Positions 187-24,629 of a DNA stretch of 64,000 bases are shown here, in pieces. Position numbers and translations under genes: made by a program. Position 1 is the stretch's first letter; every line of letters begins with the position of its first letter. Under the pieces are notes generated by a model. It saw only the letters and a program-made list of their open reading frames with translations, was not told the DNA's origin and did no database searches. Origin of the DNA: Escherichia coli (GTDB taxonomy: Bacteria; Pseudomonadota; Gammaproteobacteria; Enterobacterales; Enterobacteriaceae); the NCBI RefSeq assembly GCF_046105845.1, contig NZ_CP151004.1. One strand, 5' to 3'.

Positions 187-1902
187 TTACTTCAGCGGCG
201 AACGGTTACGATCAATGCCGTAGCGTTCGATCTCTTTATACGGCACGGTTTTTGACTGGCGCTTGCGCACATCAACCAGCGTCACACGGTCGGTACAGGA
301 GTAGCAGGGATCAAGGCTACCGATAATTAGCGGTGCGTCAGAAACGGTATTGCCGCGCAGCATGTAACGCAGCACTGGCCAGTTGGCGTAGGTGGCGGCA
401 CGACAGCGCCAGCGGAACAATTTTTGGTTATCACCGAGCATGCTCCAGTGCACGTCTTCACCGCGTGGCGCTTCAACAAAGCCCAGCGCGAATGCGTGAG
501 GTTTATAGCTAAAGCCTTCGGTCAGCAGTGGGGTATCCGGCATGTTGTCGAGGGCAAATTCCAGCATTGCCAGCGAATCAAACGTCTCTTTGACACGGAC
601 CATCACGCGGGAGAAGACATCGCCGCCGGTAAAGGTAAACAGCGTTTTGGGAATATTGCCGTAGTCGGCGTAGGGGTGATCAAAGCGCAAATCACGGGCA
701 AAACCACTGCCGCGGATCAGCGGCCCGACAGGGCTATAATCACGGGCGATTTGTCGGTCGAGAATGCCAATGCCCTGAGTGCGTTGTTCCATATTCGGCG
801 TGGCAAGCAGCATCTCTACCAGCTCCGACACGTCGGCGCGCATCTCGCGCACCAGTTTCAGCGTTTGCAGACGTTGCTCTTTGAGAATATCGCGGCGAAC
901 ACCACCAATCAGATTCAGACCGTAGGTTTTACGCGACCCGGTCAGCAATTCCGCCATCGTCATCGACTTTTCCCGCACGCGGAAAAATTGCATAAAGCCG
1001 GTATCAAATCCAACAAAATGGCAGGAGAGGCCAAGGTTGAGCAAATGACTATGCAGCCGTTCGACTTCCAGCAGAATCGAGCGAATAGTATGCGCTCGTT
1101 GCGGCACCTCAATCCCCAGTGCATTTTCAACCGAGTTGGTATAGGCCACACTGTGGGCAAAACCGCAAATCCCACACACGCGGTCGGATAAGAAGGTCAC
1201 TTCGTTGTAGCCCATCCGCGTTTCTGCCAGTTTCTCCATGCCGCGATGGACATAAAACAGGCGGTAATCAGCATCGACAATTTGCTCGCCATCCACAAAC
1301 AAGCGGAAGTGACCTGGTTCATCGGAGGTGATATGCAGCGGGCCGACAGGGATCACCCGCGCATCGCTGTTGCCCTCGTTGATAAACGGATACGTTTCGG
1401 TATCAGTCGTCGGTTCTGGGCGCAGTCGATAATCCATCGCGTCTTTGCGCAGCGGATGCATATCTTCCGGCCAGTCATCGGGCAACACCAGCCGACGCTG
1501 ATCCGGCAGGCCAACCGGAATCAGCCCGTACATATCGCGAATTTCTCGCTCGCCCCAGACCGCGGCAGGGACGCGCGGTGTGACTGACGGAAACTCCCGA
1601 CTGTCGGCATCGACCAGTGCCTTCACCACAATCCAGCATTTTTCGGCCCCTTCCATAGAAAGGGCGTAATAAACCGCGTAATGACCGTTAAGTGTCCGCT
1701 CGTCGTTGCCAAACAGGACCGGAAGCCAGCCATCATGTTGATAATAAAGATAATGTACAACGTCAGGCAGCAGATTGATTTTCACCGTAATGGTGACCTG
1801 TTCAGGCGTTTGTCGCTCTTCATCCAGCACCGCGCCGGGGAACTGCGTTTTCAGGGCGGCGAGAATCGCTTCGCCACGATTTGACGATGAATTAACGTTC
1901 AC
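187..1902 (-). CDS. hyfG: Hydrogenase-4 large NiFe catalytic subunit HyfG
   Basis: ORF in track (187..1947); NiFe large-subunit motifs DRVCGICG and C-terminal DPCYSCTDR; start placed at GTG 1902 preceded by GGAGA, overlapping hyfF stop; exact start uncertain. Confidence 0.88.
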
Positions 1903-3472
1903 TGTGTTTCTCCGAAACAGATGCGGTGCCTGAAGGCAAAAAATCATGCCAGGTGCTACGTTGTGCAGGCAGGTCGTGCGTCCCTGAGAGGACTATAGTG
2001 GAAGCGCCTGCCAGGATCCTGATGACAGGTTGTGGAATATGCGTTCCCATCGCCAGCATCATGACCAGCAGAATCACCATTGGCGAGGTGGTCAACCAGC
2101 CAAGTTCACCCCGGTTAACGGCCTGCGGCGGTTTCGCCATTAACACCCGCGCAGCCATCCGTACCAGGCCCGCCAGCACCAGCGTTAACAGCAATAACAG
2201 CAGGACGATAAGCAGCAGATGATTACGCGCCAGTCCGGCGGTAACGGTCATAAATTCGCTAAGAAAAATGTTGAAGGGCGGCATCCCGGCCAGCGCCAGC
2301 GCACCGCCGCCAAACAACACGGCGGTAAATGGCATGATTTTGAGCATCCCACAGACGACGTTGAGATCGCGCGTGCCGTACTTGAGCAGTACATTGCCGG
2401 AACCGCAGAACAACAGCGTTTTGGCCAGACTGTGGTTTAAGGTGTGCAGCAGCGCGGCAAAAATTCCCAGCGGCCCGCCAATGCCTAACGCCACCGCGAC
2501 CAGTCCCATGTTCTCCACGCTGGAGTACGCCAGCAGACGCTTAATGTCCCGCTGTACCAGAATGAAAAATGCCGCCACGGCAACCGACAACATGCCGAAG
2601 ATGAGCAACAACCGGTTGGGGAAATCGCTGCCGATGGCCTGGCAAATAATGATGTAATAGCGAATCAGCACCAACAGCGCGCAGTTCAGCAATACGGCGG
2701 AGAGCAGGGCGCTGACCGGACTCGGCGCTTCACTGTGAGCATCCGGCAGCCAGGCGTGCATGGGAAATAGCCCGGTTTTGGTGCCAAAGCCAATTAGCAC
2801 AAACACAAAGGCCAACAGCATTAATGTTGGGTCAAGCAAGGACGATTGCTTAAGAACCTCGCTCCAGAATATCGCCATTTCTGCCTGCGGCATAACGCTG
2901 GCGGCGTTGGCGTATACCAGCACGGTACCGAACAGACCAAAAGCGACACCAACAGTACAAATAATGATGTACTTCCATGCAGCTTCCAGCGATGAACGCT
3001 GACCGTAAATGCCTACCAGAAACGCCGAGCTTAAGGTGGTGGCTTCGATCGCCGCCCACATCACAATCAGGTTATTGCTGGTAACAACCAGCAGCATGGT
3101 GAACAAAAACAGATGGAAGAAACCGTAGTAATCGCACAGCGTAACGGGTGAAAGCTCGCCGTGCTCCACTTCATGACGCATGTAGCCAATCGAGTAAACA
3201 CCGGTGAGAAAGCCAATCACACCAAGAATGGCGAGGAACAAACCGCCCAGACCATCAATATGAAGCCACAGTCCCGCAGCGAATATTTCTCCCGCATCAG
3301 CGGCAGTTTGGACCACCCAGAGTGCCAGAATCAGCAGCAGTGTGATCCCTAAGCTATGTAATACTGTCACCGCGCAAGTCGCAGAGTGCCCCCGTTTCCG
3401 GCAGGCAAAACAGAGCAGCGAAAAAAGCAGCGGCGTGAGCAGGAGTAAAGCGAACATCACAGAATAACTCAT
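1892..3472 (-). CDS. hyfF: Hydrogenase-4 membrane subunit HyfF (complex I antiporter-like)
   Basis: 526 aa polytopic membrane ORF, position in hyf operon, NuoN/NuoM-like sequence. Confidence 0.92.
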
Positions 3473-19651: not shown

Positions 19652-22600
19652 TTATTCCGGGCGCGGCTTCAGCGGGAAGCGGCGGCGCACCAGCACAAAG
19701 AACAGCGGCACGAAGTAAATAGCCAGAATAGTGGCCGAAATCATCCCGCCCATTACGCCAGTACCCACCGCATGCTGACCACCGGAACCGGCACCCGTGC
19801 TGGTTGCCATTGGCAATACGCCGAAGATAAATGCCAGCGAGGTCATCAGAATCGGGCGTAAACGCTGACGGCAGGCGTGGAGCGTCGCTTCAAACAGGTC
19901 GTGGCCTTTTTGGTTCATCTCGTTAGCAAACTCGACGATCAGGATGGCGTTTTTCGCCGATAAACCAATGACCGTTAACAGGCCCACCTGGAAGTAAACG
20001 TCGTTTTCCAGCCCGCGCATCCAGGTTGCCAGCAGCGCGCCGATAACCCCCAGCGGCACGACCAGCATTACCGAGAACGGCACCGACCAGCTTTCATACA
20101 GCGCCGCCAGACACAGGAATACCACCAGCAAGGAAATGGCGTACAGCGCCGGAGCCTGCGCGCCGGAAAGCCGCTCCTGATACGACATCGCCGTCCACTC
20201 CAGACCAAAGCCGTTTGGCAGCTGCTTCACTAACGATTCCATAATATCCATCGCCGTACCGGTACTGACCCCCGGTGCGGCTTCCCCGACAATCTCTACC
20301 GCAGAATAACCGTTATAGCGTTCCAGACGCGGCGAGCCTGTCTCCCAGCGTGAGGTCGCGAAAGCAGAGAAGGGCACCATGCCGCCATCTTTATTTCGGA
20401 CATACCAGAGATTGATGTCATCTGGCAGCATGCGATATGGCGCAGCTGCCTGCACATAGACTTTCTTCACGCGACCGCGATCCATAAAGTCATTCACATA
20501 GCTCGAACCCCAGGCGGTTTGCAGCGTGTCGTTAATATCGTCGATAGCAACGCCCAGCGCCTGAGCTTTACGCTGGTCGATATCGATCTGCAACTGCGGA
20601 CTGTCATCGAGGCCGTTATGGCGCACACGGGTTAGCTCCGGGTTTTCCGCCGCCAGCGCCAGCAACTGGTTACGTGCTGCCATCAGCGCATCGTGACCTG
20701 CCCCAGCGTGGTCCTGCAACTCCATATCAAAACCTGCAGAACTGCCAAGACCGCTAATTGCTGGCGGGCTGCTGGCGATAACGCGAGCTTCTTTAATCTT
20801 GTTAAACGCCTTCGTTGCACGCTCGATAATGGCAAACGAGGTGCCGGTCTTACTGTCGCGTTCGCTCCAGTCTTTCAGGCGGATAAACATTCGCGCCACG
20901 TTTTGCCCGTTACCCCCAGGGCCAGAACCAACGGTGGCAAACACCGACATGATGTTGTCTTTTTCATGGGTGAAGTAATATTTCTCGATTTGCTCAACGA
21001 CTTTCAGGGTCTGTTGTTGGGTTGAACCGCTGGGCAACTGTACCGAGGTAGTAAACATGCCACGGTCTTCAAGTGGCAAGAACGACGTCGGCAAACGCAG
21101 GAACAGGAACACCATGCCGCCAAGCAGCAGGACATAAATCACAATCCAGCGCAGGCTACGGTGGAGAATTTTCGCCACCCCTTTTTCGTAGCGTTCGGCG
21201 TTGCGGTTAAACATCTGGTTAAACCAGGCAAAAAAGCCTTTTTGCCCGTGATGCTCACCCTTTTTCAGTGGCTTAAGTAGCGTGGCACACAGAGCCGGAG
21301 TGAGGATCATCGCTACCAGTACTGACAGCACCATCGCCGCAACAATGGTAATAGAGAACTGGCGATAGATGGCACCGGTGGTGCCGCCGAAGAAGGCCAT
21401 TGGTACAAATACCGCCGAAAGCACCATCGCAATCCCGACCAGTGCCCCCTGGATCTGCCCCATCGATTTACGTGTGGCTTCGCGAGGAGTGAGTCCTTCC
21501 TCACTCATAATACGTTCGACGTTTTCCACCACCACGATGGCGTCATCCACCAGCAGACCGATCGCCAGCACCATCGCGAACATGGTTAAGGTGTTGACGC
21601 TGTAACCGAAGGCATAAAGTACGGAGAAGGTTCCCATCAACACCACCGGCACGGCAATAGTGGGTATCAGCGTGGCGCGGAAGTTTTGCAGGAACAGATA
21701 CATAACGAGGAAAACCAGAGCGATAGCTTCCAGCAGCGTTTTCACCACGTCTTCAATGGAGGCTTTAACAAACGAGGTGGTTTCATACGCCACCTTGTAT
21801 TCCAGTCCATGCGGGAAATACTGCGCCAGCTCGTCAAGACGATTGAGCACCAGCTCCGCTGTCGCCATTTCGTTCGCGCCGGAGGCCAGTTTTACCCCCA
21901 ACCCGGAGGCTGGCTTACCATTGAAGCGGCTAAGATAATCGTATTTCTCCGCCCCCATTTCGACGGTGGCGACATCGCCCAGCCTTACCTCTGAGCCGTC
22001 CTGATTCACCCGCAAGGTGATATCGCGGAACTGTTCTGGTGTTTGCAGCAGTGACTGGGCGTTAATGGTGGCGTTGAGCGCCTGCTTATCGACGGAAGGT
22101 GTACCACCAAGTTGCCCAACCGCAATCTGCGCGTTCTGTGACTCAATGGCATCAGTGACATCTTTAGCCGTCATCTGGAAACTGTTGAGTTTCGCCGGGT
22201 CCAGCCAGATACGCATGGAATATTGCGAACCATAGGCATCGATATCCCCGACGCCATTCACGCGGCTTAACGGATCCTGAATATTACTGGCAACGTAATC
22301 GGCAATATCCTGTTTATCCATCGAACCATCGGTAGAGACGAAGGCAATGGTCAGAATATTGGTATCGCCGGTTTTACGCACCGTCACGCCCTGATTTTGC
22401 ACCGCCTGCGGTAACTTTCGCATGGCTGATTGCAGCTGGTTTTGTACTTGCTGCACGGCTTCGTCCGGATCGGTGCCTGCTTTAAAACTTAAAGTGACAG
22501 ATGCCTGGCCGGTGCCACTGCTCTGAGACGACATATACATCAAATTATCGAGGCCGGTCATATTTTGCTCGATAACCTGGGTCACGGTGTTTTCCAGCGT

Positions 22601-22765
22601 CTGGGCCGATGCGCCGGGATAGTTAGCGGTCACTCGCACATTCGGTGGCGCGAGATCGGGGTATTGTTCAACGGGCAATGAAAAAATCGCCAGGGTCCCT
22701 GTCAGACACAACAGGATTGCCAGCACCCAGGCAAAAATGGGGCGATCAATAAAGAAATTCGCCAT
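19652..22765 (-). CDS. acrD: RND-family aminoglycoside efflux pump AcrD
   Basis: 1037 aa; N-terminus [21 protein letters not shown] typical of AcrB/AcrD. Confidence 0.96.
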
Positions 22766-22835
22766 TAAAAGAGGACCTCGTGTTTCTGCGTATCGTTGTA
22801 GGCTTGACTTGCTTCACTGTAGCGGCAAGGTACGA

Positions 22836-22853
22836 GCCAATCGTGGAGAAAAA
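22836..22853 (-). promoter_or_regulatory. BaeR box in the acrD promoter
   Basis: Minus strand reads TTTTTCTCCACGATTGGC, matching the BaeR consensus TTTTTCTCCATDATTGGC; about 70-90 bp upstream of acrD ATG. Confidence 0.65.
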
Positions 22854-22876
22854 AAGGAGTTAATGTAAATTATCAT

Positions 22877-22902
22877 GCCCTTTTATACTGAACTTTAAGG
22901 GC
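22877..22902 (-). terminator. Weak terminator-like hairpin after narQ
   Basis: gccctt-N14-aagggc stem downstream of narQ stop, followed on the minus strand by an A/U-rich stretch. Confidence 0.3.
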
Positions 22903-22928
22903 CAGTATTCTTTGGTCAGTCGGAGGCA

Positions 22929-24629
22929 TTACATCAGCTGACTTTCCTCACCCTCCGCGGAGCGAAAGCTAATACTCACTAACGTGCCGCCGCCGGAAGG
23001 TTGTGAAAAAGTCAGCGTCCCACCCAGCCGTTCCGCGCGCTCGCGCATGATATTCAGGCCATAATGACCTTCGGGTTCTTTCGGTTCACCGATGCCAATT
23101 CCGTTATCACGGATATAGACCGTGTGATTGCCGTCCGGCGCGGTGACGCAACTGACGGCGATTTCGCTGGCGTTGGCGTGCTTCATCGCATTCAGCACCG
23201 CTTCGCGAATAATTTGCAACAAATGCACCTGCATTTGCGCATCCAGCGCCAGGGTTGGCAGACGGCAGTCGAGGGTCAGTTTGGCGCTGGTTTGATTTTG
23301 TAACGTATCCAGCATTTCCCTCAACGCGGAGGGGAGATCTGCCTGCTGCAGCGTCAGGCGGAAAGTAGTCAACAGCTCGCGTAACTGCCGATAAGCATCA
23401 TTCAACGCTTGGGAAAAATCGGCCATGATACTTTGTGCGGTGGCGTTATCTTCCGGTATCGAACGCTTCAGTAACGTCAACTGGATACGTAAGTAAGAAA
23501 GTACCTGAGCCAGCGAGTCGTGCAATTCGCGGGCGATGGTCGCACGTTCTTCCATCAACAGTAACTGCTGAAAATGCTTCTGCGCCTGATTAAAGTACAA
23601 ACCGCGTCCCAGCATCGACGAAACGCTGTTAAGCAGCGGTTCTGATGATGAAACGTGACTATTTTGCCAGTGCAGTTCGCCGTAAACCGTCTCTTGCATT
23701 GTCACCGGTAAAATCTGCATCGGCAATTCCGGGTTTGGTTGCCCTTCGCTAATCCGCCAGTTTTCACCGACATTTAACTCCAGATATTCAGCCGCTTCGT
23801 TGTCGCGAACAATCTGCAAAATATGGCGGAAACAATGCACATCAATCTGGCTGGTGTTCAGTGCCTGCGAACACTGATACAACACCTCCAGGCGACGCTT
23901 GGCCTCGTGGAGGTCGCGGGTCTTTTCTTCTACTGACGCCTCCAGCGAACGGTACAATTTATGCAGCTCGCTCGACATCTGGTTAAAGGTTTTGGCAAGC
24001 AGGCCAAGCTCATTCGGCAGGCTGGTATCCAGCGGCGGCGAGTCGAACTGCCCGTGTTCAATACGCTGACTGGCGGTAACCAGCTGATTCAGCGGGGCAA
24101 CCACCTGATGGCGTATGCGGCGCAAAGTAAAAAAGACCAGCGTGAAAATACCGATGCCGCCAGCCAGGGAAATCGCCACCACCAGCAGCATTTTGCGTTC
24201 AGCGTAGTGCTGTAAAGCCAGTACGAACAGGTCTATCTGATTAACATAATTATTAATATTGGCCTGATACCACGGTAAATCGCCCTTGCTGAGCCGATTA
24301 TTCATCTCCAGCCAGTTGGCATTCAGATGCGCGTAGCGGGTTTTTACTGCCTCTGGCACATACCAGACGTTGAGATTGGTTAATACCGGTGAATGCAGTG
24401 CCTGCTGAAATAACTGCCGATGTGCATTGAGTTGTGGACTGCCACTTTGCAAGTCGTAGCCCAGGCGGTAACTCTGCATACGCAGCGATCCGGCAATATT
24501 GATAGCCTCAGCGTCGCGCAAACTGCTCGCCAGAGTTAGCAGAGCGATACCCGTGGAAAGAATCGACAGCAGCACAATGTAAAAAAAGGCCCGGGCCAGA
24601 CTGGCCGAGACGGGTCGTTTAACAATCAC
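22929..24629 (-). CDS. narQ: Nitrate/nitrite sensor histidine kinase NarQ
   Basis: 566 aa from GTG 24629 (IVKRPVSASLARAF...); H-box ELHDSLAQ; C-terminal ATPase domain. Confidence 0.95.
   Translation of the reverse strand: MIVKRPVSASLARAFFYIVLLSILSTGIALLTLASSLRDAEAINIAGSLRMQSYRLGYDLQSGSPQLNAHRQLFQQALHSPVLTNLNVWYVPEAVKTRYAHLNANWLEMNNRLSKGDLPWYQANINNYVNQIDLFVLALQHYAERKMLLVVAISLAGGIGIFTLVFFTLRRIRHQVVAPLNQLVTASQRIEHGQFDSPPLDTSLPNELGLLAKTFNQMSSELHKLYRSLEASVEEKTRDLHEAKRRLEVLYQCSQALNTSQIDVHCFRHILQIVRDNEAAEYLELNVGENWRISEGQPNPELPMQILPVTMQETVYGELHWQNSHVSSSEPLLNSVSSMLGRGLYFNQAQKHFQQLLLMEERATIARELHDSLAQVLSYLRIQLTLLKRSIPEDNATAQSIMADFSQALNDAYRQLRELLTTFRLTLQQADLPSALREMLDTLQNQTSAKLTLDCRLPTLALDAQMQVHLLQIIREAVLNAMKHANASEIAVSCVTAPDGNHTVYIRDNGIGIGEPKEPEGHYGLNIMRERAERLGGTLTFSQPSGGGTLVSISFRSAEGEESQLM

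Follow-up and report, generated by a model that had tools for sequence, protein, structure and literature searches.

The BaeR box of the acrD promoter in an Escherichia coli genome: conservation across Enterobacterales and probable architecture of the operator

The 18-mer found on the minus strand upstream of acrD is the BaeR box already known for this gene, in a wild-type copy with nothing unusual about it. The reading that we prefer, and to which we assign a probability of roughly 0.8, takes the element to be the BaeR operator of the acrD promoter, which would work as a tandem site for phosphorylated BaeR (BaeR~P) placed over the -35 position of an activator-dependent promoter. The original prediction had presented the box as a known element, and it is indeed the described BaeR site, ordinary in this strain. 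What is added here is a refined cross-species map of a conserved promoter module, together with an upstream element. Overexpression of AcrD driven by BaeSR plays a part in resistance to beta-lactams (temocillin among them), to novobiocin, and to bile salts and metals. Because of this role of AcrD in resistance, it is useful to know whether the promoter of a given strain is intact and of the wild type.

In the window (the whole stretch of 64,000 nucleotides that was analysed), the regulated gene, acrD, occupies 19652..22765 on the minus strand and encodes 1037 amino acids, with its ATG at 22765; the name is that of the RefSeq annotation under a 100% match. Positions 22766..22928 make up the whole narQ-acrD intergenic region (163 bp), the upstream ORF, narQ, ending at 22929. 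A 501-nt query over the region matches E. coli strain 746 with 100% identity and is found in 5424 of 5426 complete E. coli genomes, in which the RefSeq flanking genes are narQ and acrD. Compared with K-12 MG1655, the window is identical from 22874 to the acrD ATG, that is, over the proximal 110 nt with the box included. The intergenic differences from K-12 are four in number (22921, 22903, 22900 and 22894) and all lie upstream of 22876. Since this is an E. coli window whose proximal 110 nt are those of K-12, the K-12, Salmonella and Erwinia literature on BaeSR and acrD is directly applicable, and the agreement with known BaeSR control of acrD that had been noted at the outset holds.

The two genes, narQ and acrD, lie on the same strand, and a scan of 22600..23100 reveals no intrinsic-terminator-like structure between them. 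Transcription might therefore read through from narQ into acrD. A search of the same interval against Rfam gives nothing at E <= 1, which leaves the conservation described below without a known RNA element as its explanation.

The Nishino-type box TTTTTCTCCACGATTGGC reads exactly as predicted on the minus strand at 22836..22853 and is identical in K-12. Counted from the A of the acrD ATG, it occupies -88..-71 of the coding strand, in the sense orientation, where a distance of about 70-90 bp had been anticipated. The BaeR consensus used in the prediction is the same as the published one, TTTTTCTCCATDATTGGC, which PMC3915751 and PMC3799227 quote from Nishino et al. 2005. However, the box does not match it at every defined position, as had been claimed, but at 17 of 18, the sole mismatch being a C for T at position 11. 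When the window is shuffled with preservation of its dinucleotides, none of 100 shuffles gives a match with <=1 mismatch.

In K-12 (NC_000913.3), the spy box reads TTTTTCTCCATAATTGGC and the mdtA box TTTTTCTCCCTTATTGGC. The acrD, spy and mdtA boxes have 15 of 18 positions in common, all variation among them falling on positions 10-12, and the consensus amounts in essence to the majority rule of these three. A match to a consensus that summarises the acrD, mdtA and spy sites, the K-12 acrD box among them, is partly circular. Such agreement shows only that the strain has a wild-type acrD promoter and does not count as independent evidence of function.

Independent support for a function of the box is added by its conservation, BaeR binding at this place being a prediction. 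Within E. coli, the 60-mer 22815..22874, in which the box is included together with its flanks, has an exact copy in 5336 of 5426 complete genomes (5386 matching records). Together with the position of the K-12 differences, this bears out the view that the regulatory region is intact. In contrast, the distal 60-mer (22869..22928) is exact in only 345 E. coli records, although the difference between the two is due in part to the megablast word size.

Beyond E. coli, one genome per species was scanned with the first 400 amino acids of AcrD. The scan yields 57 orthologue loci with 75-100% identity, ranging from Escherichia, Citrobacter and Enterobacter to Serratia, Yersinia, Erwinia, Pectobacterium, Rahnella and Hafnia, and 23 AcrB-like paralogues with 62-65% identity that serve as controls. 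For 51 of the 57 acrD orthologues, the 420 nt that precede the gene contain the core TTCTCCA[CT]G as a single copy, always in the sense orientation. The core is found upstream of none of the 23 paralogues, and the chance expectation is ~0.2 over all loci. The distance between core and ATG varies among the orthologues from -86 to -351, indicating that the core is not carried along by conservation of the coding sequence.

The operator/-10 module lies ~88 nt upstream of the acrD ATG in Enterobacteriaceae, and 280-350 nt upstream in Erwinia persicina and Pectobacterium spp. (loci L030, L044 and L061). So large a distance would imply that the 5' leader is long or that some small feature lies in between. 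For Erwinia amylovora acrD, PMC3915751 aligns TTCTTCACGATTACTGGC to the E. coli consensus. In the orthologous alignment, which covers other Erwinia species (loci L030, L032, L035 and L041), the core (AAT)TTCTCCACGATT is 3 nt out of register with that published alignment. Given this shift of register, the mismatches in the published alignment may be overstated.

Column statistics on 52 distinct sequences anchored at the core delineate a sharply bounded conserved block that extends from 22876 to 22839, with unconserved sequence on both sides. The block has the pattern ATGATAATTTACA-yTw-TCTCC-TTtttT-TCTCCACG-w-TT. The GGC end of the 18-mer (22838..22836) is unconserved, with an information content of 0.08-0.43, and conservation extends over the 23 nt that precede the 18-mer. 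Judged by the alignment, the unit under selection is shifted upstream relative to the 18-mer of the literature.

The block contains two putative half-sites. The downstream or promoter-proximal one, TCTCCACGATT (22839..22849, minus strand), is the most conserved part of the box; its TT at 22840/22839, which lies outside the anchor, is conserved at 100% and 96%, respectively. The upstream one is ACTCCTTTTTT (22850..22860, minus strand), and TCT[C/T]C is found at its position in 48 of 51 orthologue promoters; the corresponding figure for the downstream CTCC, 51 of 51, is a consequence of the anchor selection. The two CTCC cores (22859..22856 and 22848..22845) are in direct orientation with a period of exactly 11 bp, and CTCC-N7-CTCCA has one occurrence in the window. 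The published BaeR half-site TCTNCANAA, as cited from Yamamoto 2008, agrees with the downstream copy at 6 of 7 defined positions and poorly with the upstream copy, at 3 of 7. The CTCC period is 11 bp for acrD, 10 bp for mdtA and 22 bp for spy, so that a tandem model is not uniform across the BaeR regulon. A third BaeR half-site at 22871..22861 was considered and rejected (4/11 matches).

E. coli carries an A at 22860 (ACTCC), whereas T (TCT[C/T]C) is the base in 48 of 51 acrD promoters from elsewhere. A 60-mer with the T variant, taken from a locus labelled E. coli (L006), is exact in 0 of 5386 complete E. coli records. This marks L006 as an outlier lineage and the A as essentially fixed in E. 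coli. That the A weakens the upstream half-site is speculative. The stronger proposal, that it cripples the site, was not adopted, since mdtA, with a C at the corresponding position, is bound in vivo all the same.

A -10-like hexamer, TACAGT (22816..22821, minus strand), starts 14 nt after the 18-mer. At identical spacing, 50 of 51 orthologue promoters have a hexamer that starts with TA; 49 also end in T and 44 read TA[ACG]AGT. The G at 22823 (position -14) is 83% conserved. If TACAGT is taken as the -10, transcription would start near 22809 (22807..22811, minus strand), a position estimated from that of the -10 only and giving a 5' UTR of ~44 nt. The BaeR site would then extend from about -51 to -30, over the -35 position. 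A search of the literature for the acrD transcription start gave nothing usable. When 22600..23100 is scanned for sigma-70 promoters and terminators, nothing is found, and there is no canonical -35/-10 pair. This fits an activator-dependent promoter, although it gives no positive evidence for one.

Envelope stress (indole, tungstate, Cu/Zn, temocillin) activates BaeS, which leads to BaeR phosphorylation and to increased transcription of acrD. In the mechanism that we propose, a BaeR~P dimer would occupy ACTCCTTTTTT (22860..22850) and TCTCCACGATT (22849..22839) head-to-tail, as AdeR and PhoB do on their sites. The 18-mer would be the promoter-proximal part of this tandem direct-repeat site, with its CTCC cores one helical turn apart. 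Since the promoter has a conserved -10 (TACAGT, with the G at -14) and no usable -35 hexamer, the bound BaeR might substitute for the -35 contact and recruit RNA polymerase in a class II-like manner. It must be noted that this class II geometry is conditional, because the start is inferred from the -10. CpxR, reported to be an auxiliary activator, probably binds just upstream, possibly at ATGATAATTTACA. BaeR itself belongs to the OmpR/PhoB family (K-12 BaeR, PDB 4B09), and its C-terminal domain is closest to the DNA-binding domains of PhoB (3T72, 1GXP) and AdeR (5X5L), with E values of ~1e-14 to 1e-12.

The conserved upstream element ATGATAATTTACA (22864..22876, minus strand) is directly upstream of the BaeR half-sites and is conserved as strongly as the box, with a column conservation of 0.75-0.98 and TTAC in 49 of 51 promoters. 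Its opposite strand reads TGTAAA, which contains one perfect CpxR half-site, GTAAA. A similar TTTCATAATT is found at the same relative place in K-12 mdtA. The centre of the element is at ~ -61 from the inferred start, which is a typical position of a class I activator or UP element. ATGATAATTTACA is a candidate for a CpxR half-site, for the site of another activator or for an UP-like element. According to a Salmonella paper, a predicted CpxR site (GTAAA-agcgc-ATGAT) overlaps the 5' end of ATGATAATTTACA.

Further upstream lies a weak CpxR-like direct repeat, TTAAAGTTCAGTATA (22884..22898, minus strand), with 2 mismatches to GTAAA-N5-GTAAA; as an accessory site it is speculative. A search with the CpxR consensus at <=2 mismatches gives 58 matches in the window against 39 expected. 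The region of TTAAAGTTCAGTATA is poorly conserved and contains the A/G difference from K-12 at 22894. Being neither distinctive nor conserved, it was rejected as a part of the mechanism. Similarly, an OmpR link for the TTTACATT element has no support in the temocillin paper, and the likeness of the upstream element to an EvgA box or a PhoP box is poor by eye.

A natural insertion has occurred within the module in E. coli DETEC-E480 (locus L004, NZ_CP116181.1). The narQ-acrD intergenic region of this strain harbours a transposition unit of ~2.8 kb (205..3005) that contains an ISEcp1 transposase gene, finO, a gene for an ANR-family regulator and a truncated thermonuclease gene. The insertion point is the conserved TTTACA (window equivalent ~22864..22868), with a 5-bp target duplication, TTTAC. 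The BaeR half-sites and the -10 remain intact, but the insertion displaces the upstream half of the conserved element. The transposase gene points in the direction of acrD but is located at the narQ side of the 2.8-kb unit, the end remote from acrD, so that an effect on acrD would need read-through across the unit.

Turning to regulation, acrD is a member of the core BaeSR regulon, and CpxR is reported to co-regulate acrD and mdtA. Induction of acrD by BaeR overexpression, indole, tungstate and temocillin is BaeS/BaeR-dependent; in MG1655, the response to tungstate depends on BaeS. In Erwinia, BaeR retards acrD upstream DNA in an EMSA, and its overexpression leads to a 3.8-fold induction. BaeR sites in the Salmonella acrD and mdtA promoters are reported in statements cited from Nishino 2007. 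'Direct regulation' of E. coli acrD by phosphorylated BaeR is stated in a citation of Hirakawa 2005.

One study points in the other direction. ChIP-exo of MG1655 in 5% ethanol detects a BaeR peak at both spy and mdtA, whereas acrD has none. In addition, acrD is absent from the BaeR iModulon, and the authors of the ChIP-exo work conclude that its regulation is indirect. This was the only study of high-throughput BaeR binding retrieved by a search of the literature. The conflict with direct control of acrD is real. It is more likely that a weaker site was missed under the one condition used, given that the operator is conserved at fixed geometry in 51 species and that in vitro binding data exist. 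The conservation map also argues against the ChIP-exo-based view of acrD as only indirectly controlled.

In a rival reading, the box, although conserved, would be unoccupied by BaeR in E. coli in vivo, BaeSR would act on acrD indirectly via another regulator and the motif would serve a different protein. Besides the missing peak upstream of acrD and the exclusion of the gene from the iModulon, the fixed A at 22860 in an otherwise conserved upstream half-site could be invoked in favour of this model. Yet the 18-mer is nearly the same as the spy and mdtA boxes, both of which have ChIP-exo peaks, and mdtA is bound despite having C, not T, at the equivalent of 22860. Moreover, BaeR does bind the acrD upstream DNA of Erwinia, sites in Salmonella acrD are reported (in the cited form given above), and ethanol, the single ChIP condition, may activate BaeR too weakly for a site of lower affinity. 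We therefore regard an unoccupied box as improbable.

Even less credence is given to the proposal that the conserved block is mainly the operator of some other response regulator, CpxR or one that is OmpR-like, to which the BaeR likeness would be secondary. CpxR has the reported role in co-regulating acrD and mdtA to recommend it, and its perfect half-site GTAAA is present on the opposite strand of the adjacent ATGATAATTTACA. However, the CTCC tandem is unlike GTAAA-N5-GTAAA, what comes closest to a full CpxR site between narQ and acrD is a weak match that is not conserved, and in the literature (the temocillin paper) no link between OmpR and acrD was found. At most, such a regulator would explain the upstream element, not the box. 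As for a chance match devoid of function, all that speaks for it is how often short T-rich motifs occur in intergenic DNA. The shuffled windows already weigh against it, and the occurrence of the core in 51 of 57 promoters, at fixed geometry to the -10 and amid randomised flanks, refutes it; its probability is negligible.

The preferred reading remains that of a BaeR operator in tandem form. A more elaborate version can be envisaged, in which the 18-mer of the literature would be only the downstream part of a 38-bp composite module (22876..22839) with fixed geometry across Enterobacterales, consisting of ATGATAATTTACA and the two CTCC half-sites 11 bp apart. E. coli alone would have a fixed T-to-A change at 22860, possibly lowering the affinity for BaeR, hence the lack of a ChIP-exo peak and a need for help from CpxR. 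Taken as a whole, this version is tentative and we hold it to be rather doubtful.

In practical terms, the bases under selection are the two CTCC cores, ACG-TT, the upstream TTTACA and the -10, but not the GGC end of the published box. For mutagenesis and motif searches, the refined map should be a better guide than the 18-mer.

The closest relatives of the acrD site are the spy and mdtA boxes which, like it, are in the sense orientation upstream of a BaeSR-induced gene. The mdtA promoter resembles that of acrD further in that another CTCC and an element of the TTT(A)CAT type come before its box. acrD differs at position 11, which is C, and at position 8 of the 9-mer half-site, which is G. Unlike the acrD box, that of spy is ~140-157 nt from the ATG and far upstream of the core promoter.

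Outside the BaeR regulon, the operator of AdeR in the adeABC system of Acinetobacter baumannii is AAGTGTGGAG-N-AAGTGTGGAG, bound head-to-tail (PMC5766154), and a crystal structure of the AdeR DNA-binding domain on DNA has been solved. Read on the other strand, it becomes CTCCACACTT-N-CTCCACACTT, i.e. direct repeats with an 11-bp period, as in acrD. The first 10 nt of TCTCCACGATT, namely CTCCACGATT, match the AdeR half-site CTCCACACTT at 8 of 10 positions. Both AdeR and BaeR are OmpR/PhoB-family regulators of an RND efflux pump. However, the AdeR repeats are perfect copies whereas the upstream copy in acrD is degenerate (CTCCTTTTTT), and AdeR is a different regulator from a different organism. 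AdeR-type binding by BaeR is inferred.

The DzrR box of desAB in Dickeya, Burkholderia and Ralstonia offers another parallel. It comprises two direct CTCCAT repeats within the DNase I footprint CGGTTCTCCATCATATCTCCATATT. Like the acrD site, it has direct TCTCCAT half-sites 11 bp apart, upstream of an envelope-stress-responsive RND pump operon. DzrR is nevertheless a distinct regulator; deletion of baeR in Dickeya is without effect on desAB induction, and DzrR appears to be phosphorylation-independent. The resemblances to the AdeR and DzrR sites and to the published BaeR half-site support the suggested binding mode but do not prove it.

Finally, the pho box recognized by PhoB, whose repeats take the place of the -35 hexamer, shares with the acrD site the tandem 11-bp repeats and a promoter without a recognizable -35 hexamer. 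Structures are available for the PhoB-sigma4-DNA complex (3T72) and for PhoB on pho-box repeats (1GXP). The half-sites differ, being CTGTCAT for PhoB as against TCTCCAC in acrD. Given the inferred start, the BaeR site of acrD would also lie about one helical turn further upstream than the pho box.
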